Positions 3,709 through 43,531 of a stretch of 64,000 bases of DNA are shown here, in pieces. The notes below the pieces were generated by a model. The model searched no databases. It saw only the letters and a list, made by a program, of their open reading frames with translations, and was not told the DNA's origin. The stretch is from an uncultured Alphaproteobacteria bacterium (GTDB lineage: Bacteria; Pseudomonadota; Alphaproteobacteria; RF32; CAG-239). The DNA is taken from the NCBI GenBank assembly GCA_944391435.1, contig CALXTP010000004.1, positions 2,303-66,302 of the forward strand. The letters are read 5' to 3'. Both the position numbers and the translations under genes were made by a program. Numbering within the stretch: the stretch's first letter is position 1; each line of letters begins with the position of its first letter.

Positions 3709-5331
3709 ATGAGCATAGAAACCATTACCATTTTTCTTTATGTCTGGCTGACCATAAGTTTATGTTTTCCCCTGCTGGCCGTTGTTTTGTTTCGTCGCAC
3801 CCGCAGGATAAAAAGCGAGCTCACCAAACGGGATTTAGCCAACAGTTATTATGAAGAAATGCTCTATGCGGCCAAAGACGGCTACCTGACCGGTTCCGTA
3901 TACAAAGACAAAGAATACCAATATTGTTCGCGCCGCCTGGCCACGCTGCTTAATCTGAAAAACGGGGAAAAGAGCACCGCTGCGGAGGTTTTTTCCGTAT
4001 TTGCACGCGCCGATGCCGAAAAGCTAAACGGCATGTACCTCGCATTGCAAAAAAGCGGCATAAGTTTTGAAACAATCGCCCGCAGCCAAAACAAAAAAAT
4101 CTTTGTCGTATCCGGCTGCCGCATCAGTTCTGCCGATTCCAAAATAGAAAGCAATTGCCTGTGGTTTCGTGACATCACGCACGAAACGGAATTTATTGAC
4201 CGCGCCACCGAAGAGGCGATATCTTGCCGCAAAGAAATGGAAGACTACCGGATTTTGATAGACAACCTGCCCTGTCCGGTATGGTTGCGCGATGACAAGC
4301 TGAACCTCCGGATTTTAAACCGACGGTACCTGGAATTGCTGGGATTGAAAAGTTTCAAAGACATCACGCCCGAAAACTCGGTTCTGCGCGACCTGGGTAA
4401 TACCACAAATCTGCTGGAAATGGCAAAAAATGCCCGTGAATCAAACACGCCGCAGAAAAAGAACATCAACATCCTGCATAACGGCGAACTCAAAAAATAT
4501 GAAATAACCGAAACGCCTTATTACGATTCGTCCCTGAAAACCTCCCACATTATCGGCTCGCTGATAGACATCACAAACTTTGACGAAGCCAAGCGCAGCT
4601 ATCAGGTCCACCTGGAAACGCACCTGGACATATTAAGCTCGCTGGATACGGCCTTTTGCATCGTCAACACCAGGCACGAGTTTACGTTCGGCAATGCCGC
4701 CTTTCTGAAATTATGGGGGCTGCCGCCGGATTTTCTGAACAACTCTCCCCATTACAACCTGTTTTTAGATAAGATTCGCGAACAGCGTACATTACCCGAA
4801 GTTTCGGATTTTAAAGCCTACAAAGAAGAAGAAAACAAGGCTTTTGACGCTTTAACGGAACAGCGGGAAGATTTGCTTTACATTCCTGACGGCCGCACAT
4901 TCCGGCGCATACGCGCCCCACACCCGGACGGGACGATTATTGCTTACGAAGACATATCCGACCGCCTGGCAGATGCCCGCCGCCTCAGCGATTTAATGTC
5001 CGTACAGCGCGGCATTTTGGACAATATCAGCGATTCGATTGTCATCTTCGCTCCGAATTTGAAGCTGAAAATCTACAATCCTGCTTTTATTAAGTTATGG
5101 GGCATAAATGCCATCGCCCTGGATGCGCTGCCGTCTCTGCGGGAGCTGCTGGATATGCAAAAGCCAAAGCTCCCCGAACTGGACGACTGGGAGACATTTC
5201 GCGAAGATATGCTAAAGCACATAACTGCCTGTACCCAATTTACGCTCAAATTGAAAAACAAACAAAAAATATTGGTAACGCCGGTCATCTTGGCAGACAC
5301 GTCTTTAATGATTACATATCGCCGGGAATAA
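3709..5331 (+). CDS. Membrane-anchored PAS-domain protein. No histidine-kinase H-box or ATPase motifs were seen.
   Basis: N-terminal TM helix, then repeated PAS-like segments (PCPVWLRDDKLNLRILNRRYLELLGL; AFCIVNTRHEFTFGNAAFLKLWG; IVIFAPNLKLKIYNPAFIKLWG). Confidence 0.5.
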   Translation: MSIETITIFLYVWLTISLCFPLLAVVLFRRTRRIKSELTKRDLANSYYEEMLYAAKDGYLTGSVYKDKEYQYCSRRLATLLNLKNGEKSTAAEVFSVFARADAEKLNGMYLALQKSGISFETIARSQNKKIFVVSGCRISSADSKIESNCLWFRDITHETEFIDRATEEAISCRKEMEDYRILIDNLPCPVWLRDDKLNLRILNRRYLELLGLKSFKDITPENSVLRDLGNTTNLLEMAKNARESNTPQKKNINILHNGELKKYEITETPYYDSSLKTSHIIGSLIDITNFDEAKRSYQVHLETHLDILSSLDTAFCIVNTRHEFTFGNAAFLKLWGLPPDFLNNSPHYNLFLDKIREQRTLPEVSDFKAYKEEENKAFDALTEQREDLLYIPDGRTFRRIRAPHPDGTIIAYEDISDRLADARRLSDLMSVQRGILDNISDSIVIFAPNLKLKIYNPAFIKLWGINAIALDALPSLRELLDMQKPKLPELDDWETFREDMLKHITACTQFTLKLKNKQKILVTPVILADTSLMITYRRE

Positions 5332-5374: not shown

Positions 5375-6169
5375 ATGACTGAAAAAGATGAAACCTTTGC
5401 ACCTAATCAAAAAAAGATTATTGACTGGGACAAAAAATCTGCCTCTGACGCCTCCCGTATCGGCAAGCGGCTGTCCGGCCGCGCCGCACTGCCGGATCAG
5501 GCTTCAACCGACAACAGCATCTCCCGGCTAAACACGCCGAAACCATCAGACAAAGCCTTGCGGCGCCTCCGGCAGAAAATACGGGAAGTGTACGATGAAG
5601 AAGATGAAGAAGAAGACGCATCACCTGATTTTTTTAATATCAACCTGCTTGGCGAAACGGAAGATGCAGCCGAAAGCACCCGCAGGCATACAGAAACGGA
5701 AACGATTCGCATCACAAAAGAACAACAGCTTGCCGGCAAATTAAACGCCATCCTCAGCACCTCTCTTGCCGCCAAAGAAGCCGGTCTGCCGCCATCTCCG
5801 ACTTCGCAAGATGCACGCCTTGCCAATGCGGCCGAATATGATATTCCCGGGATTCGCCGCAAGACATTAAAACAAAAGGTTTCCGAACCGCTGCATTTAA
5901 AAGGAGAACTGAAAGAGGACGGCCTGCCAAACGCTTTGCGCGGCATCAAAAAGACCAGAGACAGGCTACCCGAAGACGCCCTCAACGATTACCCCGCTTC
6001 GGATGCCGAAGAACTGGACAATGAAGATACCGAAGCCAAATTAGCCAAACTAATATTAAAAAAATCCGGGCGCCGCGCCCCAAACAAAAAACTATCCGAA
6101 CTGGTTCGGGAATCCTCAATAGCCGAAAAAGCCCGTTCTACCAAACAAAACGGCAATGAAAACGCCTGA
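5375..6169 (+). CDS. Hypothetical acidic, low-complexity protein
   Basis: 264-aa ORF with an RBS-like AAAGGAG upstream. It is D/E/K-rich and probably disordered. Confidence 0.4.
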   Translation: MTEKDETFAPNQKKIIDWDKKSASDASRIGKRLSGRAALPDQASTDNSISRLNTPKPSDKALRRLRQKIREVYDEEDEEEDASPDFFNINLLGETEDAAESTRRHTETETIRITKEQQLAGKLNAILSTSLAAKEAGLPPSPTSQDARLANAAEYDIPGIRRKTLKQKVSEPLHLKGELKEDGLPNALRGIKKTRDRLPEDALNDYPASDAEELDNEDTEAKLAKLILKKSGRRAPNKKLSELVRESSIAEKARSTKQNGNENA

Positions 6170-6184
6170 CGCTGCGAAACATAA

Positions 6185-6213
6185 TTGACACTTATAAAAT
6201 TTTGTGATATCCT
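6185..6213 (+). promoter_or_regulatory. Candidate sigma70 promoter for the 6246 operon
   Basis: TTGACA (6185-6190), a 17-nt spacer, then TATCCT (6208-6213), about 30 nt upstream of the ATG at 6246. Confidence 0.35.
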
Positions 6214-6245: not shown

Positions 6246-6668
6246 TTGGCTATGGAAAATCAATATTACACGCTCATTGAGAAACAGGATTTTTTTGAAA
6301 TAATAGAAAACAAATTCGGCGAACTGGCCGTATTCATCGACGCCCGCAAAGGCGAACCGGCTAACCCGATATTGGAGTTTGACGGCAAAAACTCCGCTTT
6401 GTTAAAACGTGACGGGCGCCTGGCTGTCAAATTGGAGGGCATAAATTCCGAAACAGCGGAAGTTCTGGCCGAATCGGAATTTGTCATGATTGTGGAGTTA
6501 TCCGGTGATACGGTAGAAAGAACCTACGGCGTGCCGGTTGAAATGGTAGAAGAAATCGCATTCCGCGGCCGCCAAACCCGCGCTGACGAATTAGAGCGCA
6601 TAAAGAGCAAAAATGAGCTGATAGAAGCTTTCGGTGCCGTTAAGATATGGAAAAGCGGAGAAAAATAG
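6246..6668 (+). CDS. Hypothetical protein occupying the HprK position upstream of EIIA(Man)-HPr. No Walker A motif.
   Basis: 140-aa ORF with good coding potential. It ends 2 nt before the EIIA start. Confidence 0.45.
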   Translation: MAMENQYYTLIEKQDFFEIIENKFGELAVFIDARKGEPANPILEFDGKNSALLKRDGRLAVKLEGINSETAEVLAESEFVMIVELSGDTVERTYGVPVEMVEEIAFRGRQTRADELERIKSKNELIEAFGAVKIWKSGEK

Positions 6669-6669
6669 A

Positions 6670-7068
6670 ATGATTGGAATAGTATTGGTAACGCATGGCC
6701 GCCTGGCCGATGAGTTTTTATCAGCCATGCAGCATATCGTCGGCCCGCAGCAGCAAATAGCCACCGCATGTATCGGCCCCAACGACGATATGAATATCCG
6801 CCGCGAAGATATTTTGCATAAAGTGCAGGATGTTGACAGCGGTGACGGGGTGGTTGTACTGACCGATATGTTCGGCGGCACTCCGTCAAACTTATCCATC
6901 TCCATCATGGACCACGCCAATATTGAAGTCATTGCCGGCATCAATCTGCCAATGCTTGTAAAATTAAGCTCTTTAAGAAAAGACAAGCCGCTTAAAGAAG
7001 CCGTTGCCGGCGCCAAGGAAGCCGGTATCAAATACATAACGATTGCTTCCGAGCTTCTTGGAAAATAA
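6670..7068 (+). CDS. PTS EIIA component, mannose/fructose family (ManX-like regulatory EIIA)
   Basis: MIGIVLVTHGRLADEF...VVLTDMFGGTPSNL matches EIIA-Man. A GGAG RBS lies 7 nt upstream. Confidence 0.75.
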   Translation: MIGIVLVTHGRLADEFLSAMQHIVGPQQQIATACIGPNDDMNIRREDILHKVQDVDSGDGVVVLTDMFGGTPSNLSISIMDHANIEVIAGINLPMLVKLSSLRKDKPLKEAVAGAKEAGIKYITIASELLGK

Positions 7069-7091: not shown

Positions 7092-7370
7092 ATGGAAGAT
7101 AAGATTTCTGCAGAATTGGAAATTCAGAATGAACGCGGATTGCACGCCCGCGCCGCCGCCGCTTTTGTCAAAGCGACAGACGGATTAAACGCAAATATTG
7201 AAGTAGAACGCCTTGGGCAAACCGTAGGCGGCAGTTCCATTATGGGTCTGATGATGTTAGCTGCGTCCAAAGGCACCACCATAAAGGTTTCGGCAACGGG
7301 CCCTGATGCACAAAAAGCCATAGACGCCATAACACAATTGGTCAACAACAAATTCGGCGAAGAGAAATAA
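7092..7370 (+). CDS. ptsH: Phosphocarrier protein HPr
   Basis: IQNERGLHARAAA (His-15 region) and GSSIMGLMML (Ser-46 region). Confidence 0.8.
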   Translation: MEDKISAELEIQNERGLHARAAAAFVKATDGLNANIEVERLGQTVGGSSIMGLMMLAASKGTTIKVSATGPDAQKAIDAITQLVNNKFGEEK

Positions 7371-7372
7371 AA

Positions 7373-8305
7373 ATGAAGGGCACCCCGGCTCCCCGCAACA
7401 AAACCCTTATCTTATCGGAGTCGGACATTGCCGAATATTCTTCGCGTGCCGTTACCCTTTCCGGCAAAGCAAAATTAAACGACATCATAAACAAAACCAT
7501 CTGGCAGGATACTTTTGAGGCGCTGAAGTTTTTGCCGGCGGACTTTGCCGACCTGGTGATTGTTGACCCGCCATACAATCTGACCAAGAAGTTCGGCACC
7601 AAAGAATTTAAATCCATGGATTGGAACGACTACAAGCGTTGGATGGATAAATGGCTGGCAGAAATTTTTATTTCTTTAAAGCCGAACGGCAGCCTGTACA
7701 TATGTTCCGACTGGAACACATCAATAGCCGTCCCGGAAATAGCCGGCAAATATTTTCTACTGAAAAACCGCATAACCTGGGAACGGGAAAAAGGGCGCAG
7801 CTCCGGCAATAACTGGAAAAACTGCCTGGAAGATATATGGTTTTTTACCAAATCATCGGAATACACGTTCAATCTGGACGCCGTCAAGCTGAAGCGCCCG
7901 GTATTGGCACCGTATAAAGATGACAACGGCACCCCGAAAGATTGGCAGGAAGACGAGGAAATAGAGGGCGGAAAATATCGCCTGACCGCGCCGTCAAACT
8001 TGTGGACGGATATCTCCATTCCATTCTGGTCAATGGCAGAAAACACGCCGCACCCGACCCAAAAGCCCGAAAAGCTGATTGCCAAGCTGATACTGGCCTC
8101 CAGCAACGAAGGCGATGTGGTTTTTGACCCGTTTTTAGGCTCCGGCACCACCTCGGTAACCGCCGCCAAACTCGGCCGCCGCTACATCGGCATTGAACGG
8201 GAGCGCGAATATGTCGCCCTGGCGGAAAAAAGGCTGGAGATGGCACAAACAGATAAAACCATTCAAGGTTACGAAAACGGCGTATTCAAACTGCGCCATG
8301 CCTGA
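7373..8305 (+). CDS. Site-specific DNA adenine methyltransferase, beta-class (CcrM/M.HinfI family)
   Basis: Motif IV IVDPPYNL, HPTQKPEKL, and C-terminal motif I FDPFLGSGTT...GRRYIGIEREREY. The order and spacing match CcrM-type N6A methyltransferases. The ATG is 3 nt after the ptsH stop. Confidence 0.8.
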   Translation: MKGTPAPRNKTLILSESDIAEYSSRAVTLSGKAKLNDIINKTIWQDTFEALKFLPADFADLVIVDPPYNLTKKFGTKEFKSMDWNDYKRWMDKWLAEIFISLKPNGSLYICSDWNTSIAVPEIAGKYFLLKNRITWEREKGRSSGNNWKNCLEDIWFFTKSSEYTFNLDAVKLKRPVLAPYKDDNGTPKDWQEDEEIEGGKYRLTAPSNLWTDISIPFWSMAENTPHPTQKPEKLIAKLILASSNEGDVVFDPFLGSGTTSVTAAKLGRRYIGIEREREYVALAEKRLEMAQTDKTIQGYENGVFKLRHA

Positions 8306-8395
8306 CCCCGCGGCATCGTTTCACCCCGGATTCCTGCATTTGACAATTGCCGGATTTCATGTTACACTATATTGAAACGGATAAGGGGAAAAACG

Positions 8396-9637
8396 ATGGA
8401 TTCAATCCAGATATACGATGATTTTATTGAACGGCATAAGGACATTCCTTCTTATCTGGCCCGGCTCATCAGCAGCGAAAGAGGCAATTTGCCGCCACCT
8501 CGGGAAACGGCCGCTTATAATCTCGGCACCATGCAAAAAGACGCAGACATTGCTTTTTCTGACAATATTGCCATCGCCAATGCCCACCGTTTTCAAACCG
8601 AATTTAACCGTTACAAAACCGAAAACCCGCAAATGGGCGACACGGAAGCCCGTGCCCGGGTCGTATTTGACTTTTTACAACAAAACCACAGCCCCTTTTC
8701 CTATGATAAAAACAAAAGTGACATTTTGTGGGGCAATGTAACCAGAGAACTGTTCTACGGCGCCCCAAAAGATAGCGTATATGCCAACGCCACCTCAAAC
8801 ACCAACTTTTTTGACCGGAACATCGGCAATATGCAAATAATATGCATGGAGCCAAAATCTGCCGACAGCCTGCCCCGCAACGTCGCCGGTCTGTCCGAGG
8901 AAACAAAAGCCGCTTTCCTTGCCATTCCGCCGGAAGAGCGCCTGACAATCCTATTAAAGCGCGGCTTTTATCATGAGAGCATACACGCCACCATGCCGAC
9001 AACGGATGAAAGGAAATGCGATGCCTTTGCCATGTTAAAAGTAATGAAAGAACACCCTGCCCATACGCAAACCATTTTTGACATTTACAATATGCAGCGC
9101 TCCAAAACCGGGCACACCATTGAAAATATGTACCAAAAACGTGAAGGGACAAACGATTTCCGGCGCGAAATCAAAAAAGGCACCATGACCTATATAATGC
9201 CGGAAACATACAAAAAGCTTGAAGAATACGCCAAACATCCGGAAAAAATCCCCGTTGACGACGGCAGCCTGCTCAAGCTCGCCTGTTCTCTCACGTCAGA
9301 ACCAGAATTTTCCGACAAACAGCTTGATGCGTTTGTCAGCCTCATGTCTCAAAAAGAGATTACGGCAAATGATTTGGCAAACAACGAAATAATCCAAAGC
9401 TGCATGCGCCAGGGAAAATTTACGGACATAAACGCTTACATCAAAAGTGACAACGCCTTAAACAAATTTATAGAAAAACAAAAGTTTCAAAAAAGCATGC
9501 GAAAAATTACCGAATTGCGGCAAAAAATATCCCCCTCCGGCATCAGGCCGCCTTTAACCGCAGAAAAGACAAAAGAAAAACGCCAAATTTCGCCCATGGT
9601 ATTAAAAACATACCAAAACAGCAAACAAAACAACTAA
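8396..9637 (+). CDS. Hypothetical protein with no recognised domain
   Basis: 414-aa ORF with an AAGGGG RBS. It lies downstream of the methyltransferase. Confidence 0.45.
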   Translation: MDSIQIYDDFIERHKDIPSYLARLISSERGNLPPPRETAAYNLGTMQKDADIAFSDNIAIANAHRFQTEFNRYKTENPQMGDTEARARVVFDFLQQNHSPFSYDKNKSDILWGNVTRELFYGAPKDSVYANATSNTNFFDRNIGNMQIICMEPKSADSLPRNVAGLSEETKAAFLAIPPEERLTILLKRGFYHESIHATMPTTDERKCDAFAMLKVMKEHPAHTQTIFDIYNMQRSKTGHTIENMYQKREGTNDFRREIKKGTMTYIMPETYKKLEEYAKHPEKIPVDDGSLLKLACSLTSEPEFSDKQLDAFVSLMSQKEITANDLANNEIIQSCMRQGKFTDINAYIKSDNALNKFIEKQKFQKSMRKITELRQKISPSGIRPPLTAEKTKEKRQISPMVLKTYQNSKQNN

Positions 9638-9773: not shown

Positions 9774-11639
9774 ATGAAACCGATGAAAAGTATCTTATTC
9801 TGGCTCGTTGCTTTCATTTTGCTGAGCGTCATAATGAACGGCATGGCACCCGAAGCCAAAAAGAATGCTGCCGCACCGATTGCTTTTTCGGAATTTATGA
9901 ACAAAGCCGAAAACAATCAGATTGATTCCGTAACCATTATCGGCAATGACATCTACGGCACCTATGCCAACGGCGCCGAATTTCGCACATATGCGCCGTT
10001 TGACCCAAGCATGGTAGAAACGCTGCGCAAACAAGGCGTAAAGATTGAAGCCAAACCGATAGACACCTCAGAAAGTACGTTCTGGGGCATCGTCATTTCC
10101 TGGTTCCCGATGTTATTGCTCATCGGCGTTTGGATTTTTTTCATGCGCCAGGCAAATTCCGGCAACAACAAAGCCATGAGTTTCGGCAAATCCCGTGCCC
10201 GGCTGATTGAAAACACCAAAAAGGTAACTTTTGCCGACGTTGCCGGCGCAGACGAAAGCAAACAGGAGCTGGAAGAGATTATTGATTTCTTAAAAGACCC
10301 GCAAAAATTCCAACGCCTCGGCGGCAAGATTCCGAGAGGCGTGCTGCTCGTCGGACCTCCGGGAACAGGCAAAACCCTGTTGGCAAAAGCCGTCGCCGGT
10401 GAAGCGAATGTCCCGTTCTTTTCCATTTCCGGCTCAGATTTCGTTGAAATGTTTGTCGGTGTCGGAGCATCGCGCGTCCGTGATATGTTCGCCCAGGCCA
10501 AAAAGAATGCACCTTGCCTGCTGTTTATAGACGAAATAGACGCCGTTGGCCGCCATCGCGGCGCCGGTTTGGGCGGCGGCAATGACGAACGTGAGCAAAC
10601 CCTGAACCAGCTGCTGGTGGAAATGGATGGTTTTGAAGCGCACGAAAATGTCATCGTCATCGCAGCCACCAACCGTCCTGACGTTCTGGATCCGGCATTG
10701 CTGCGCCCCGGTCGCTTTGACCGCCAGGTTACCGTAAGCAATCCGGACGTTAAAGGGCGCGAGGAAATTTTAAAAGTCCATACCCGCAAAGTCCCGTTGG
10801 CAAAAGATGTCAATTTAAGCGTCGTCGCACGCGGCACGCCGGGTTTTTCCGGTGCCGATTTGGCCAATCTTGTCAATGAAGCGGCCTTGCTGGCTGCCCG
10901 CAAAAACAAATTAAAAGTAAGCTCAGCAGATTTTGACGAAGCCAAAGACAAGGTCCTGATGGGCAACGAACGCAAATCCATGGCAATGGACGAAAAAGAA
11001 AAGTGCCTGACCGCTTATCATGAAGCAGGCCACGCCGTTTGCTCGTTATACGTCAAAGACACCGATCCGATACACAAAGCCACGATAGTCCCGCGCGGAA
11101 GAGCTTTGGGCATGGTTCAGCAACTGCCGGAAAAAGACAAGTATTCTTATTCCCGCATCCAGATGCTGTCGCGTTTAGCCATCTTAATGGGCGGCCGCGT
11201 TGCCGAGGAGCTGAAATTCGGCTATGGCAACGTAACTTCCGGCGCTTCAGCGGATATCAATGCCGCAACCAACTTGGCACGCGCCATGGTAACGGAATGG
11301 GGGATGAGCGATGTCTTAGGACCGATTCGCTACTCAGAAAACTCTAATGAAGTTTTCTTAGGCCGCGCCGTAACCCAAAATCAAAATATGAGCGAAGAAA
11401 CAGCCCGCCTGGTAGACGCCGAAATCAAACGGTTTGTAACCGAGGGCTATGAAGAAGCGAAAAAGATTTTGCATGAACATCGCGCAGATTGGGAAAAGAT
11501 TGCAGAAGCTCTGATAGAATACGAAACGTTGACCGGCGATGAAATTAAAGAAATTCTGGCCGGCAAAACGATAGACCAGAACAAAGATGCTCCCGTTTCG
11601 GAAGAAAAACGCACAAAAGCATCTATTCCGGAACTGTAA
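9774..11639 (+). CDS. ftsH: ATP-dependent zinc metalloprotease FtsH
   Basis: Two N-terminal TM helices, AAA+ Walker A GPPGTGKT, the SRH region, and the zinc motif HEAGHA. Confidence 0.95.
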
Positions 11640-11654
11640 TGTACTTTCCCTCCG

Positions 11655-11685
11655 GAGGTCTGCCGCAAGGCAGGCCTCTTTTTTT
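11655..11685 (+). terminator. Rho-independent terminator after ftsH
   Basis: Hairpin gaggtctgcc-gcaa-ggcaggcctc followed by T7. Confidence 0.55.
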
Positions 11686-37864: not shown

Positions 37865-37941
37865 TGGTGTCAGCGGCGGGACTCGAACCCACTACCCACA
37901 GTTTAGGAAACTGTTGCTCTATCCTGATGAGCTACGCCGAC
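37865..37941 (-). tRNA. tRNA-Arg (anticodon CCU)
   Basis: Hand-folded 77-nt cloverleaf on the minus strand: 7-bp acceptor stem, D-arm GCTC/GAGC, anticodon loop TTCCTAA, T-arm GTGGG-TTCGAGT-CCCGC, discriminator A, encoded CCA. Confidence 0.85.
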
Positions 37942-43086: not shown

Positions 43087-43164
43087 ACGCCATATTTATT
43101 AAATAAAAGCTTAACCTATTTAAAAAGCCGAAAAATTTTCTAAAAAAAATAATCACTATTATTC

Positions 43165-43192
43165 TTGAATTTAAAAAAAAATCCCCTATAAT
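43165..43192 (+). promoter_or_regulatory. Near-consensus sigma70 promoter of ssrA
   Basis: TTGAAT (43165-43170), a 16-nt spacer, TATAAT (43187-43192). The predicted TSS is about 43199. Confidence 0.5.
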
Positions 43193-43199
43193 TCTTCTT

Positions 43200-43506
43200 A
43201 GTATGTGCTTCGGCACACACTTTGATACGAAAAGCCGCATGAAATAGATATATTGGACCCGGGGGCGGTACCCGGCACCTCCACCATAGACGGGGGTGAA
43301 ACAGGTTTGACAGTGTATAGTAAAGATGCGTGGGCTGTATTCGGCAAGACACCACCGTTATCGGTTCAAATCAAATAAACGCAAATGATAATTTTGCACC
43401 GGTTGCCGTAGCCGCATAAGGCAAAGCAACAAATGAAATTCTTCTGGTTATGGTTAACCGGGAGTGGGGAAGGAGCCGCCCAGCAACAGAAGGGCTCATT
43501 TTATTT
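43200..43506 (+). ncRNA. ssrA: tmRNA (ssrA), circularly permuted two-piece type as in alphaproteobacteria
   Basis: The acceptor 3' end GGCACCTCCACCA ends at 43286 after a T-arm CCGGG-GGCGGTA-CCCGG. Five nt later the 5' acceptor strand GGGGGTG (43292) pairs with CACCTCC and includes a G3:U70 pair. The tag ORF GCA AAT GAT AAT TTT GCA CCG GTT GCC GTA GCC GCA TAA (43381-43419) gives ANDNFAPVAVAA. A terminal hairpin at 43473-43497 is followed by a T-rich run. Confidence 0.75.
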
Positions 43507-43531
43507 AATATCTGCAGAAAGACATTTGGGA

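Follow-up and report, generated by a model that had tools for sequence, protein, structure and literature searches.

The 64,000-nt stretch of DNA analysed here, hereafter the window, contains a DNA methyltransferase gene directly behind genes of the phosphotransferase system (PTS); all coordinates below refer to window positions. Four consecutive open reading frames (ORFs) run head to tail on the plus strand and encode u140, a mannose-family EIIA, the phosphocarrier HPr and the methyltransferase. The features of this four-gene unit are listed below (aa, amino acids; SAM, S-adenosylmethionine; SD, Shine-Dalgarno).

6185..6213, + strand: sigma-70-type promoter-like site 5' of u140; TTGACA, 17 nt with TG, TATCCT; scores 10/12
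6252..6668, + strand: u140, first cistron; 138 aa from the ATG, 140 aa from an alternative TTG start at 6246
6670..7068, + strand: EIIA, mannose family, ptsM-like; Pfam PF03610, E 1e-29
7092..7370, + strand: HPr/NPr phosphocarrier (ptsO/ptsH); Pfam PF00381, E 1.2e-27; TIGR01003, 92.8 bits
7356..7375, + strand: putative coupling junction; SD-like GGCGAAGAG within the final HPr codons, TAA at 7368-7370, 2-nt spacer, ATG at 7373
7373..8305, + strand: beta-class SAM-dependent N6-adenine DNA methyltransferase, 310 aa; PF01555 (N6_N4_Mtase), E 1.5e-46

The original prediction had named these genes and described their tight spacing. Pfam and NCBIfam agree with the gene identities, and 2 nt separate the HPr stop from the ATG at 7373. 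Its length of 140 aa for the first gene holds only from the upstream TTG, since u140 measures 138 aa from its own ATG. A single nucleotide lies between the u140 stop and the EIIA start. Both PTS proteins retain their phosphorylation sites. The VTHG phospho-histidine motif of EIIA shows no variation in 80 orthologs, and the GLHARAAA (His18) and G.SIMGLMMLAA (Ser49) motifs of HPr show none in 81 sequences. No gene for EIIB, EIIC or EIID, the components of a PTS permease, is present within about 10 kb of the operon, and no Rfam riboswitch or small RNA was found at the locus at gathering thresholds.

Gene order, junction and promoter across the clade

Scanning one genome per species identified 462 genomes with a relative of the methyltransferase, and the best 80 of the 462 were analysed as loci. 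The window proteins were compared by tblastn with all loci. The best 80 are all metagenome-assembled genomes (MAGs) of uncultured Alphaproteobacteria from gut, rumen or faeces, and they carry the labels Alphaproteobacteria bacterium, Rhodospirillales, 'Acetobacter sp. 46_36' or Candidatus Scatocola. The genes for u140, EIIA, HPr and the methyltransferase are contiguous and in the same order in 80 of 80 species loci and in the 6 metagenome contigs. An identical methyltransferase is encoded on 22 metagenome contigs, with unchanged neighbours. Over the 80 loci the identity of the methyltransferase ranges from 95% down to 65%; the lowest identity at these loci is 41% for TsaB and 33% for the upstream PAS protein. 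Mean identities are 75% for the methyltransferase, 83% for FtsH and 69% for HPr. The methyltransferase diverges in parallel with the flanking genes (r 0.81-0.98), a pattern consistent with vertical inheritance under strong purifying selection, and its gene matches the neighbours in GC content. In most species ftsH directly follows the methyltransferase gene, after a gap of 66-125 nt.

The original prediction proposed that the methyltransferase is tightly coupled to HPr, and the spacing from the HPr stop to the methyltransferase start, measured in 85 loci, bears this out with a range of -4 to +17 nt. The spacing is -4 nt, an ATGA or GTGA overlap, in 39 of the 85 loci, -1 nt in 14 and +2 to +17 nt in 32. 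For one further locus (L075) the scripted search gave no start candidate, and the tblastn matches to HPr and the methyltransferase overlap by ~10 nt. The junction is too short for a separate promoter. In the window, a purine-rich SD-like GAAGAG is located 8 nt 5' of the methyltransferase ATG, overlapping the codons of the HPr C-terminus. The C-terminal Phe-Gly-Glu of HPr (window 7353..7367) shows no variation in 81 orthologs and is encoded as ttY ggN gaR. Because these codons provide the SD-like purine run for the methyltransferase, this stretch of HPr may be dual-coding.

The overlap-type junction is kept over a range of divergence that leaves TsaB with 41% identity and the PAS protein with 33%. 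It is also kept in two loci, L009 and L032, that contain a 330-nt insertion encoding a Pro/Ala/Ser-rich segment in frame with the retained ATGA overlap start, giving a 420-aa product. Retention of the ATGA start despite this insertion suggests selection on the coupled start itself. In L009 the methyltransferase ORF is at 7650..8912, with the insertion (~110 aa) in the N-terminal part. Database clusters of 340-353 aa (P0001 and P0016) probably reflect a Pro/Ala/Ser N-terminal insertion of the same kind.

Alignment of the upstream regions places a AATTGACA box and a -10 box at the same position across species. Of 78 loci, 68 have a promoter-like match within 150 nt 5' of u140, with a score of 10-11/12 in 57 of these 68. 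Matches inside the u140-HPr coding region peak at 9/12 in 41 of 46 loci and are scattered, which is the background level. The promoter scan revealed no conserved promoter internal to the operon; the only strong conserved site is 5' of u140. These results support the earlier prediction that the methyltransferase shares one apparent transcription unit with the two PTS proteins, EIIA(Man) and HPr. One transcription unit, in which the methyltransferase would be coupled to HPr by translational re-initiation, is the most economical reading of the sequence. Gene order, coupling and promoter are conserved, and the arrangement is more than chance.

In a number of distant species (L033, L039-L041, L052, L053, L059, L061-L064 and others), the -35 box of the site 5' of u140 is preceded by TTAAC, giving TTAAC-N6-TTGACA. 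We take this to resemble the half-site arrangement of a CtrA box. The TTAAC is not present in the window's own subclade.

The window also contains a two-piece tmRNA of the alphaproteobacterial type (43161..43510, tag ANDNFAPVAVAA), which confirms the class, and a tRNA-Arg(CCT) gene at 37865..37941. The genomes are roughly 2 Mb in size, and a related contig is 2.03 Mb. The literature found on the biology of RF32 and gut Alphaproteobacteria consists of microbiome surveys only.

The methyltransferase and its relation to CcrM

N6-adenine methyltransferases are distinguished by a motif IV of DPPY (not SPPY/F), a motif X of T(Q/E/D)KP and a motif IV that precedes motif I, FxGxG (PMC3973325). In the window enzyme, DPPY (residues 65-68, 7565-7576) is N-terminal to the motif X TQKP (residues 229-232, 8057-8068) and to the motif I FLGSGTT (residues 254-260, 8132-8152), the arrangement of a beta-class PF01555 enzyme. 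On this point the original prediction of a beta-class N6-adenine DNA methyltransferase stands. N4-cytosine specificity is ruled out by the DPPY and TQKP motifs. The enzyme aligns over its full length to M.BceJIV, MboIIA and RsrI. In 81 orthologs the DPPY, TQKP and FxGSGTT motifs are near-invariant, as are the loops NRIxWEREKGR...NNWKNC.ED, PKDW and PSNxWTDISIPFWSM. The near-invariance of both motifs and loops suggests that the enzyme is active and has a single specificity throughout the clade, and the methyltransferase looks active as judged from its sequence. A scan for [DNS]PP[YFWH] found no second methyltransferase in the 64-kb window.

The enzyme had also been called CcrM-like. This description is appropriate for the enzyme class only. 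The CcrM family is defined by an extra conserved C-terminal domain (PMC3973325). This domain (~90 aa, 271-358) binds the non-target strand, and its deletion abolishes activity (PMC6787082, Horton et al. 2019). In addition, a 30-residue Loop-2B of CcrM reads G1-A2-N3 through Arg44, which contacts G1, and Pro45, which acts as a wedge (PMC6787082). The window enzyme lacks the C-terminal domain: its alignment to the CcrM structure 6PBD stops at query residue 289 (chain position 259), after which ~20 residues remain. Its Loop-2B is 13 residues shorter than that of CcrM, with three gaps, and Arg44 and Pro45 are replaced by Lys73 and Phe74. The NCBIfam CcrM equivalog model, NF050803, gives 114.6 bits in two stretches against a cut-off of 830. 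With phmmer, the enzyme aligns to CcrM in two fragments only, and M.BceJIV, MboIIA and YhdJ-type enzymes rank above CcrM.

The abundance of GANTC, the target of CcrM, was expressed as an observed/expected ratio (O/E) by base composition, in the approach of Gonzalez 2014, for the window and for a clade set of 1.17 Mb of loci, together with 24 control pentanucleotides. The genomic signature of CcrM combines a deficit of GANTC overall with its enrichment between genes. GANTC has an O/E of 0.42 in the window and of 0.53 in the clade set; these ratios do not discriminate, since many control pentanucleotides are equally depleted. Among the 24 controls, GANTC ranks 8th lowest in the window and 4th lowest in the clade. 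Its intergenic O/E is 0.64 in the window and 0.59 in the clade, that is, not >1.

It could be proposed that the enzyme is a true CcrM ortholog, with GANTC methylation and a cell-cycle function, that was relocated behind ptsH. As CcrM would be, it is an orphan, vertically inherited and highly conserved beta-class N6-adenine enzyme in an alphaproteobacterial clade. The GANTC ratios are also similar in size to the under-representation reported for CcrM-bearing orders (PMC3973325). However, the absent C-terminal domain, the short Loop-2B with Lys73/Phe74 for Arg44/Pro45, the score of 114.6 against 830 and the higher phmmer placement of M.BceJIV, MboIIA and YhdJ types all stand against orthology. 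GANTC is only 8th or 4th lowest of 24, and there is no intergenic over-representation. CcrM orthology is thus highly improbable. These proteins should not be annotated as CcrM, nor should GANTC be presumed to be their target.

YhdJ is a non-essential 'CcrM-like' orphan that acts on ATGCAT and is encoded downstream of fis. The best NCBIfam match of the window enzyme is the YhdJ-type model PRK11524, at 142.9 bits and below the equivalog cut-off of 292, and BLASTP gives a full-length alignment to E. coli YhdJ with 35% identity over 257 residues. The enzyme shares its architecture, length class (310 aa, compared to 294 aa for YhdJ) and orphan status with YhdJ of E. coli and Salmonella. Like the window gene, yhdJ is just 3' of the gene for a global regulator, fis, although the two are separated by an 85-nt gap rather than joined by an overlap. 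ATGCAT has no special word statistics in the window or in the clade loci.

The best match among solved structures is M.BceJIV (8URK; E 3e-34, residues 52-289), an orphan regulator of Burkholderia cenocepacia that recognizes GTWWAC and whose base contacts are described in PMC11380664. The window enzyme shares with M.BceJIV the catalytic Asp/Pro/Tyr, Thr216/Lys218 and most SAM contacts, but keeps only 2 of the 15 base-contact residues (Trp107 and Gly138). The contacts that are not kept include Arg180, Leu182, Phe183 and Trp188 of the target recognition domain (TRD), Arg203, His205 and Gln207 of loop-6F, loop-45 and the cytosine pocket. The specificity therefore differs from that of M.BceJIV.

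Restriction context and the downstream gene

The genes of Type II restriction-modification (R-M) systems are normally adjacent and patchily distributed, and are not normally fixed in housekeeping operons. The original prediction noted that no restriction endonuclease is evident, and indeed none is recognisable within about 8-10 kb of the methyltransferase gene. PADLOC found no endonuclease or defence genes among the neighbours of the methyltransferase, and the flanks of the 80 loci contain no endonuclease gene. Downstream of the methyltransferase gene, the window contains the following features.

8340..8368, + strand: second promoter-like site, after the methyltransferase gene and 5' of u413 and ftsH; TTGACA, 17 nt, TACACT; 10/12
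8396..9637, + strand: u413, 413 aa from the ATG at 8396; HExxH at 8972-8986
9774..11639, + strand: ftsH, downstream neighbour; Pfam Peptidase_M41, AAA and FtsH_ext
11654-11679: terminator-like hairpin after ftsH

The ORF at 8396 had been given as 414 aa, but it measures 413 aa. It had been suggested as a partner of an orphan methyltransferase, as a novel restriction endonuclease or as an unrelated gene, and only the last of these suggestions agrees with its distribution. Full-length u413 occurs in L002-L006, and otherwise a match at this position is found only in the close relatives L008, L013 and L014. L001, which comes from another sample of the window's species, has lost ~900 bp from within u413 and retains 136 aa of it. 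The methyltransferase of L007 is 95% identical to that of the window; u413 is almost entirely deleted there, and the stretch 8200-8371 is kept. Homologs located elsewhere are near rpoA or among EF-hand genes, and have no methyltransferase neighbour.

The 58 homologs of u413 that were found all come from related MAGs, and none of them has a Pfam domain. H193, E194 and H197 of the HExxH motif, together with D204 and E205, are invariant in an alignment of 31 sequences. u413 has no match in Pfam, NCBIfam or PADLOC and no nuclease motif, and its profile has no match among PDB sequences. The AlphaFold2 (AF2) model is mostly helical with a confidence (pLDDT) of 91.2, and Foldseek found no match to this fold in PDB or BFVD. 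The deletions in relatives, the other contexts, the separate promoter-like site and the HExxH motif indicate that u413 is an unrelated, dispensable and clade-specific gene. Based on its sequence and model, u413 may be a metallopeptidase-like protein of an undescribed family restricted to gut Alphaproteobacteria.

Some results point toward restriction. The best PADLOC match of the methyltransferase is a Type II methyltransferase model at 224 bits; the orphan-methyltransferase model gives 111 bits in two fragments. GATC is strongly avoided, with 32 sites in the window and an O/E of 0.15 under a maximal-order Markov model. Clade-wide, the median O/E for GATC is 0.23, and all 65 of 65 loci are <0.6. 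TCGA has an O/E of 0.08 in the window and of 0 to 1.1 among species. The remaining GATC sites show no intergenic enrichment. Inference of the methylated motif from word statistics was rejected: only restriction-type avoidance of GATC and TCGA is seen, with no intergenic enrichment and no tie to the enzyme. The avoidance suggests that a pressure directed at GATC acts clade-wide, and that a TCGA restriction system specific to the species is encoded elsewhere.

The nearest homolog in a cultured organism is from Prevotella sp. oral taxon 299 str. F0039. It is 54.6% identical to the window enzyme over residues 1-305, a range that takes in the N-terminal extension. The gene of this member of the Bacteroidota (NC_022111.1, L091 5001..5954) is flanked by uncharacterised ORFs of 374 aa and 161 aa. 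The homolog may point to an earlier horizontal exchange between lineages of the gut and the mouth.

The methyltransferase could accordingly be viewed as the modification half of an R-M system, with u413 as a novel endonuclease or with a cognate endonuclease encoded elsewhere, in which case its conservation would reflect addiction and not regulation. The PADLOC scores, the GATC and TCGA avoidance and the position of the Prevotella homolog among uncharacterised genes are consistent with this view. It is made less likely by the presence of ftsH directly after the methyltransferase gene in most of the 80 loci, and by the absence or deletion of u413 even in near-identical strains with an intact methyltransferase. 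The homologs of u413 in other contexts, and its HExxH motif in place of any nuclease motif, model or fold match, also argue against an endonuclease. Finally, a fixed position in a housekeeping operon and a vertical pattern of divergence are not typical of R-M genes. A current role in restriction is very unlikely. The enzyme looks like a beta-class methyltransferase derived from a Type II system that was captured and fixed in the lineage of this clade.

A possible link between the phosphotransferase system and DNA methylation

u140 is 65-91% identical over the 80 loci and has no match in Pfam, NCBIfam or PADLOC and no sequence match in PDB. A divergent HprK was considered and ruled out, as u140 lacks a Walker A/P-loop and a match to the Hpr_kinase family. 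Residues ~8-102 form a domain of roughly 95 aa that also occurs as a standalone protein (~100 aa) and in fusions to TIR, to STAND NTPase with TPR repeats, to Sel1 repeats and to ankyrin repeats. A profile search with this domain found 194 relatives (E<1e-3), with the consensus E.E..Y.I..N..G.L...I.AR...P..P.L.YDG...ALL.R......LD.I....R..L.....VL.VE......REY..PV. The AF2 model of u140, for which the input alignment held close homologs only, is poor (pLDDT 46).

Upstream of u140, the window encodes a membrane-anchored protein of 540 aa (3709..5331), which has two PAS domains and in which no histidine-kinase domain is recognisable, followed by a 264-aa acidic low-complexity protein without a family match (5375..6169). 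Each of the two has a conserved counterpart in 56-57 of the 80 loci. The PAS protein stands where other Alphaproteobacteria have a two-component system.

The sahH gene encodes S-adenosylhomocysteine (SAH) hydrolase, which relieves product inhibition of methyltransferases. A conserved alphaproteobacterial gene order consists of a response regulator, a sensor kinase, hprK, ptsM, ptsO and sahH (Dozot et al. 2010, PMC2937029). In Brucella, co-transcription of ptsO and sahH was detected by reverse-transcription PCR (RT-PCR) (PMC2937029). A genetic connection is documented in Caulobacter, where all evolved delta-ccrM lines gained mutations in hprK or ptsP (Gonzalez and Collier 2015, PMC4551980). These hprK and ptsP mutations raise the transcription of ftsZ and mipZ (PMC4551980), indicating that the PTS and an orphan adenine methyltransferase converge on cell division in Caulobacter. 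In this organism the PTS is the principal route by which the absence of CcrM is compensated. Given the PTS-CcrM and ptsO-sahH parallels, a functional link between the PTS and DNA methylation is a reasonable hypothesis for the window locus, though by analogy and not proven.

The favoured interpretation, to which we assign a probability of roughly 0.65, is that the enzyme is a domesticated orphan beta-class methyltransferase, encoded by the fourth cistron of a u140-ptsM-ptsO/ptsH operon, that provides a housekeeping mark and is coupled to HPr. Transcription would begin at the sigma-70-type promoter 5' of u140 and extend across all four cistrons. Ribosomes that end on HPr would re-initiate at the adjacent or overlapping methyltransferase start, and through this re-initiation the methyltransferase would be made in a fixed proportion to HPr. 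The product is probably a dimer, as are other beta-class enzymes. It would carry out SAM-dependent adenine methylation of a motif that is neither demonstrably GANTC nor GTWWAC. The resulting methylation may serve as a housekeeping epigenetic mark rather than as one half of a restriction system, making the enzyme an analogue of the CcrM, YhdJ and M.BceJIV-type orphans and not a CcrM ortholog.

Several considerations weigh against this interpretation. Membership in the operon could result from the compaction of roughly 2-Mb genomes and not from function. A weak internal promoter may drive the methyltransferase. The clade-wide depletion of GATC shows a long-standing restriction-like pressure, and an unlinked endonuclease is conceivable because PADLOC favours a Type II R-M over an orphan model.

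The main alternative to a functional link is neutral hitch-hiking, in which an orphan methyltransferase landed behind ptsH and profits from a constitutive promoter without any connection to the PTS. The small genomes, with tight gene spacing throughout, are consistent with it. The other neighbours, such as ftsH and tsaB, are housekeeping genes, and nothing at the locus directly shows an interaction between PTS and methylation. Yet the overlap junction outlasts the divergence of TsaB and the PAS protein, and the coupled start survives a 330-nt insertion. Moreover, the same slot is held in other Alphaproteobacteria by sahH, which is co-transcribed with ptsO, and PTS mutations in Caulobacter specifically compensate the loss of ccrM. 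Neutral linkage is therefore considered unlikely.

A bolder proposal is that the PTS and methylation form one module. The enzyme would have taken over a CcrM-like housekeeping role in a lineage without canonical CcrM. The PTS would set how much of the enzyme is made and possibly, through direct binding of HPr or P~HPr, also how active it is. We regard this as quite unlikely. If true, genome methylation would report carbon and nitrogen status, in a hard-wired version of the Caulobacter PTS-CcrM interaction and of the ptsO-sahH linkage in Rhizobiales.

Orphan adenine methyltransferases of the Dam, CcrM and M.BceJIV types are the main epigenetic regulators of bacteria. To our knowledge, the expression of an orphan methyltransferase has been tied to physiology in very few cases. 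The domesticated, HPr-coupled enzyme proposed here suggests that DNA methylation is expressed in step with nutrient signalling across the clade, at least 80 species of gut Alphaproteobacteria that are abundant yet uncultured. If the linkage is functional, the locus is a simple natural system for asking whether nutrient signalling sets DNA methylation, and it would show that another beta-class enzyme can fill the 'CcrM role'.

Orphan adenine methyltransferases of the beta class are known; what is new is the operonic arrangement. Like CcrM of Caulobacter crescentus (GANTC, PDB 6PBD), the window enzyme is a beta-class N6-adenine methyltransferase with DPPY and TQKP motifs, is an orphan conserved vertically in an alphaproteobacterial lineage and has a link to the PTS. 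This link is genetic for Caulobacter CcrM, through the hprK and ptsP suppressors (PMC4551980), and physical for the window enzyme. Unlike CcrM, the window enzyme has a TRD that cannot be aligned to that of CcrM, appears to lack its own promoter, which in CcrM is cell-cycle-regulated and CtrA-dependent, and is predicted to be translationally coupled to HPr. Compared to the canonical PTS locus of Brucella, Sinorhizobium and Agrobacterium, the window locus shares the ptsM-ptsO pair with intact phosphorylation sites, the lack of permease genes and a sensor-type gene upstream, here the PAS protein. It differs in having u140 in the hprK slot and the methyltransferase in the sahH slot. Both loci place a gene of SAM or methyl metabolism after ptsO: the co-transcribed sahH in the canonical locus and the apparently co-transcribed methyltransferase gene in the gut Alphaproteobacteria.

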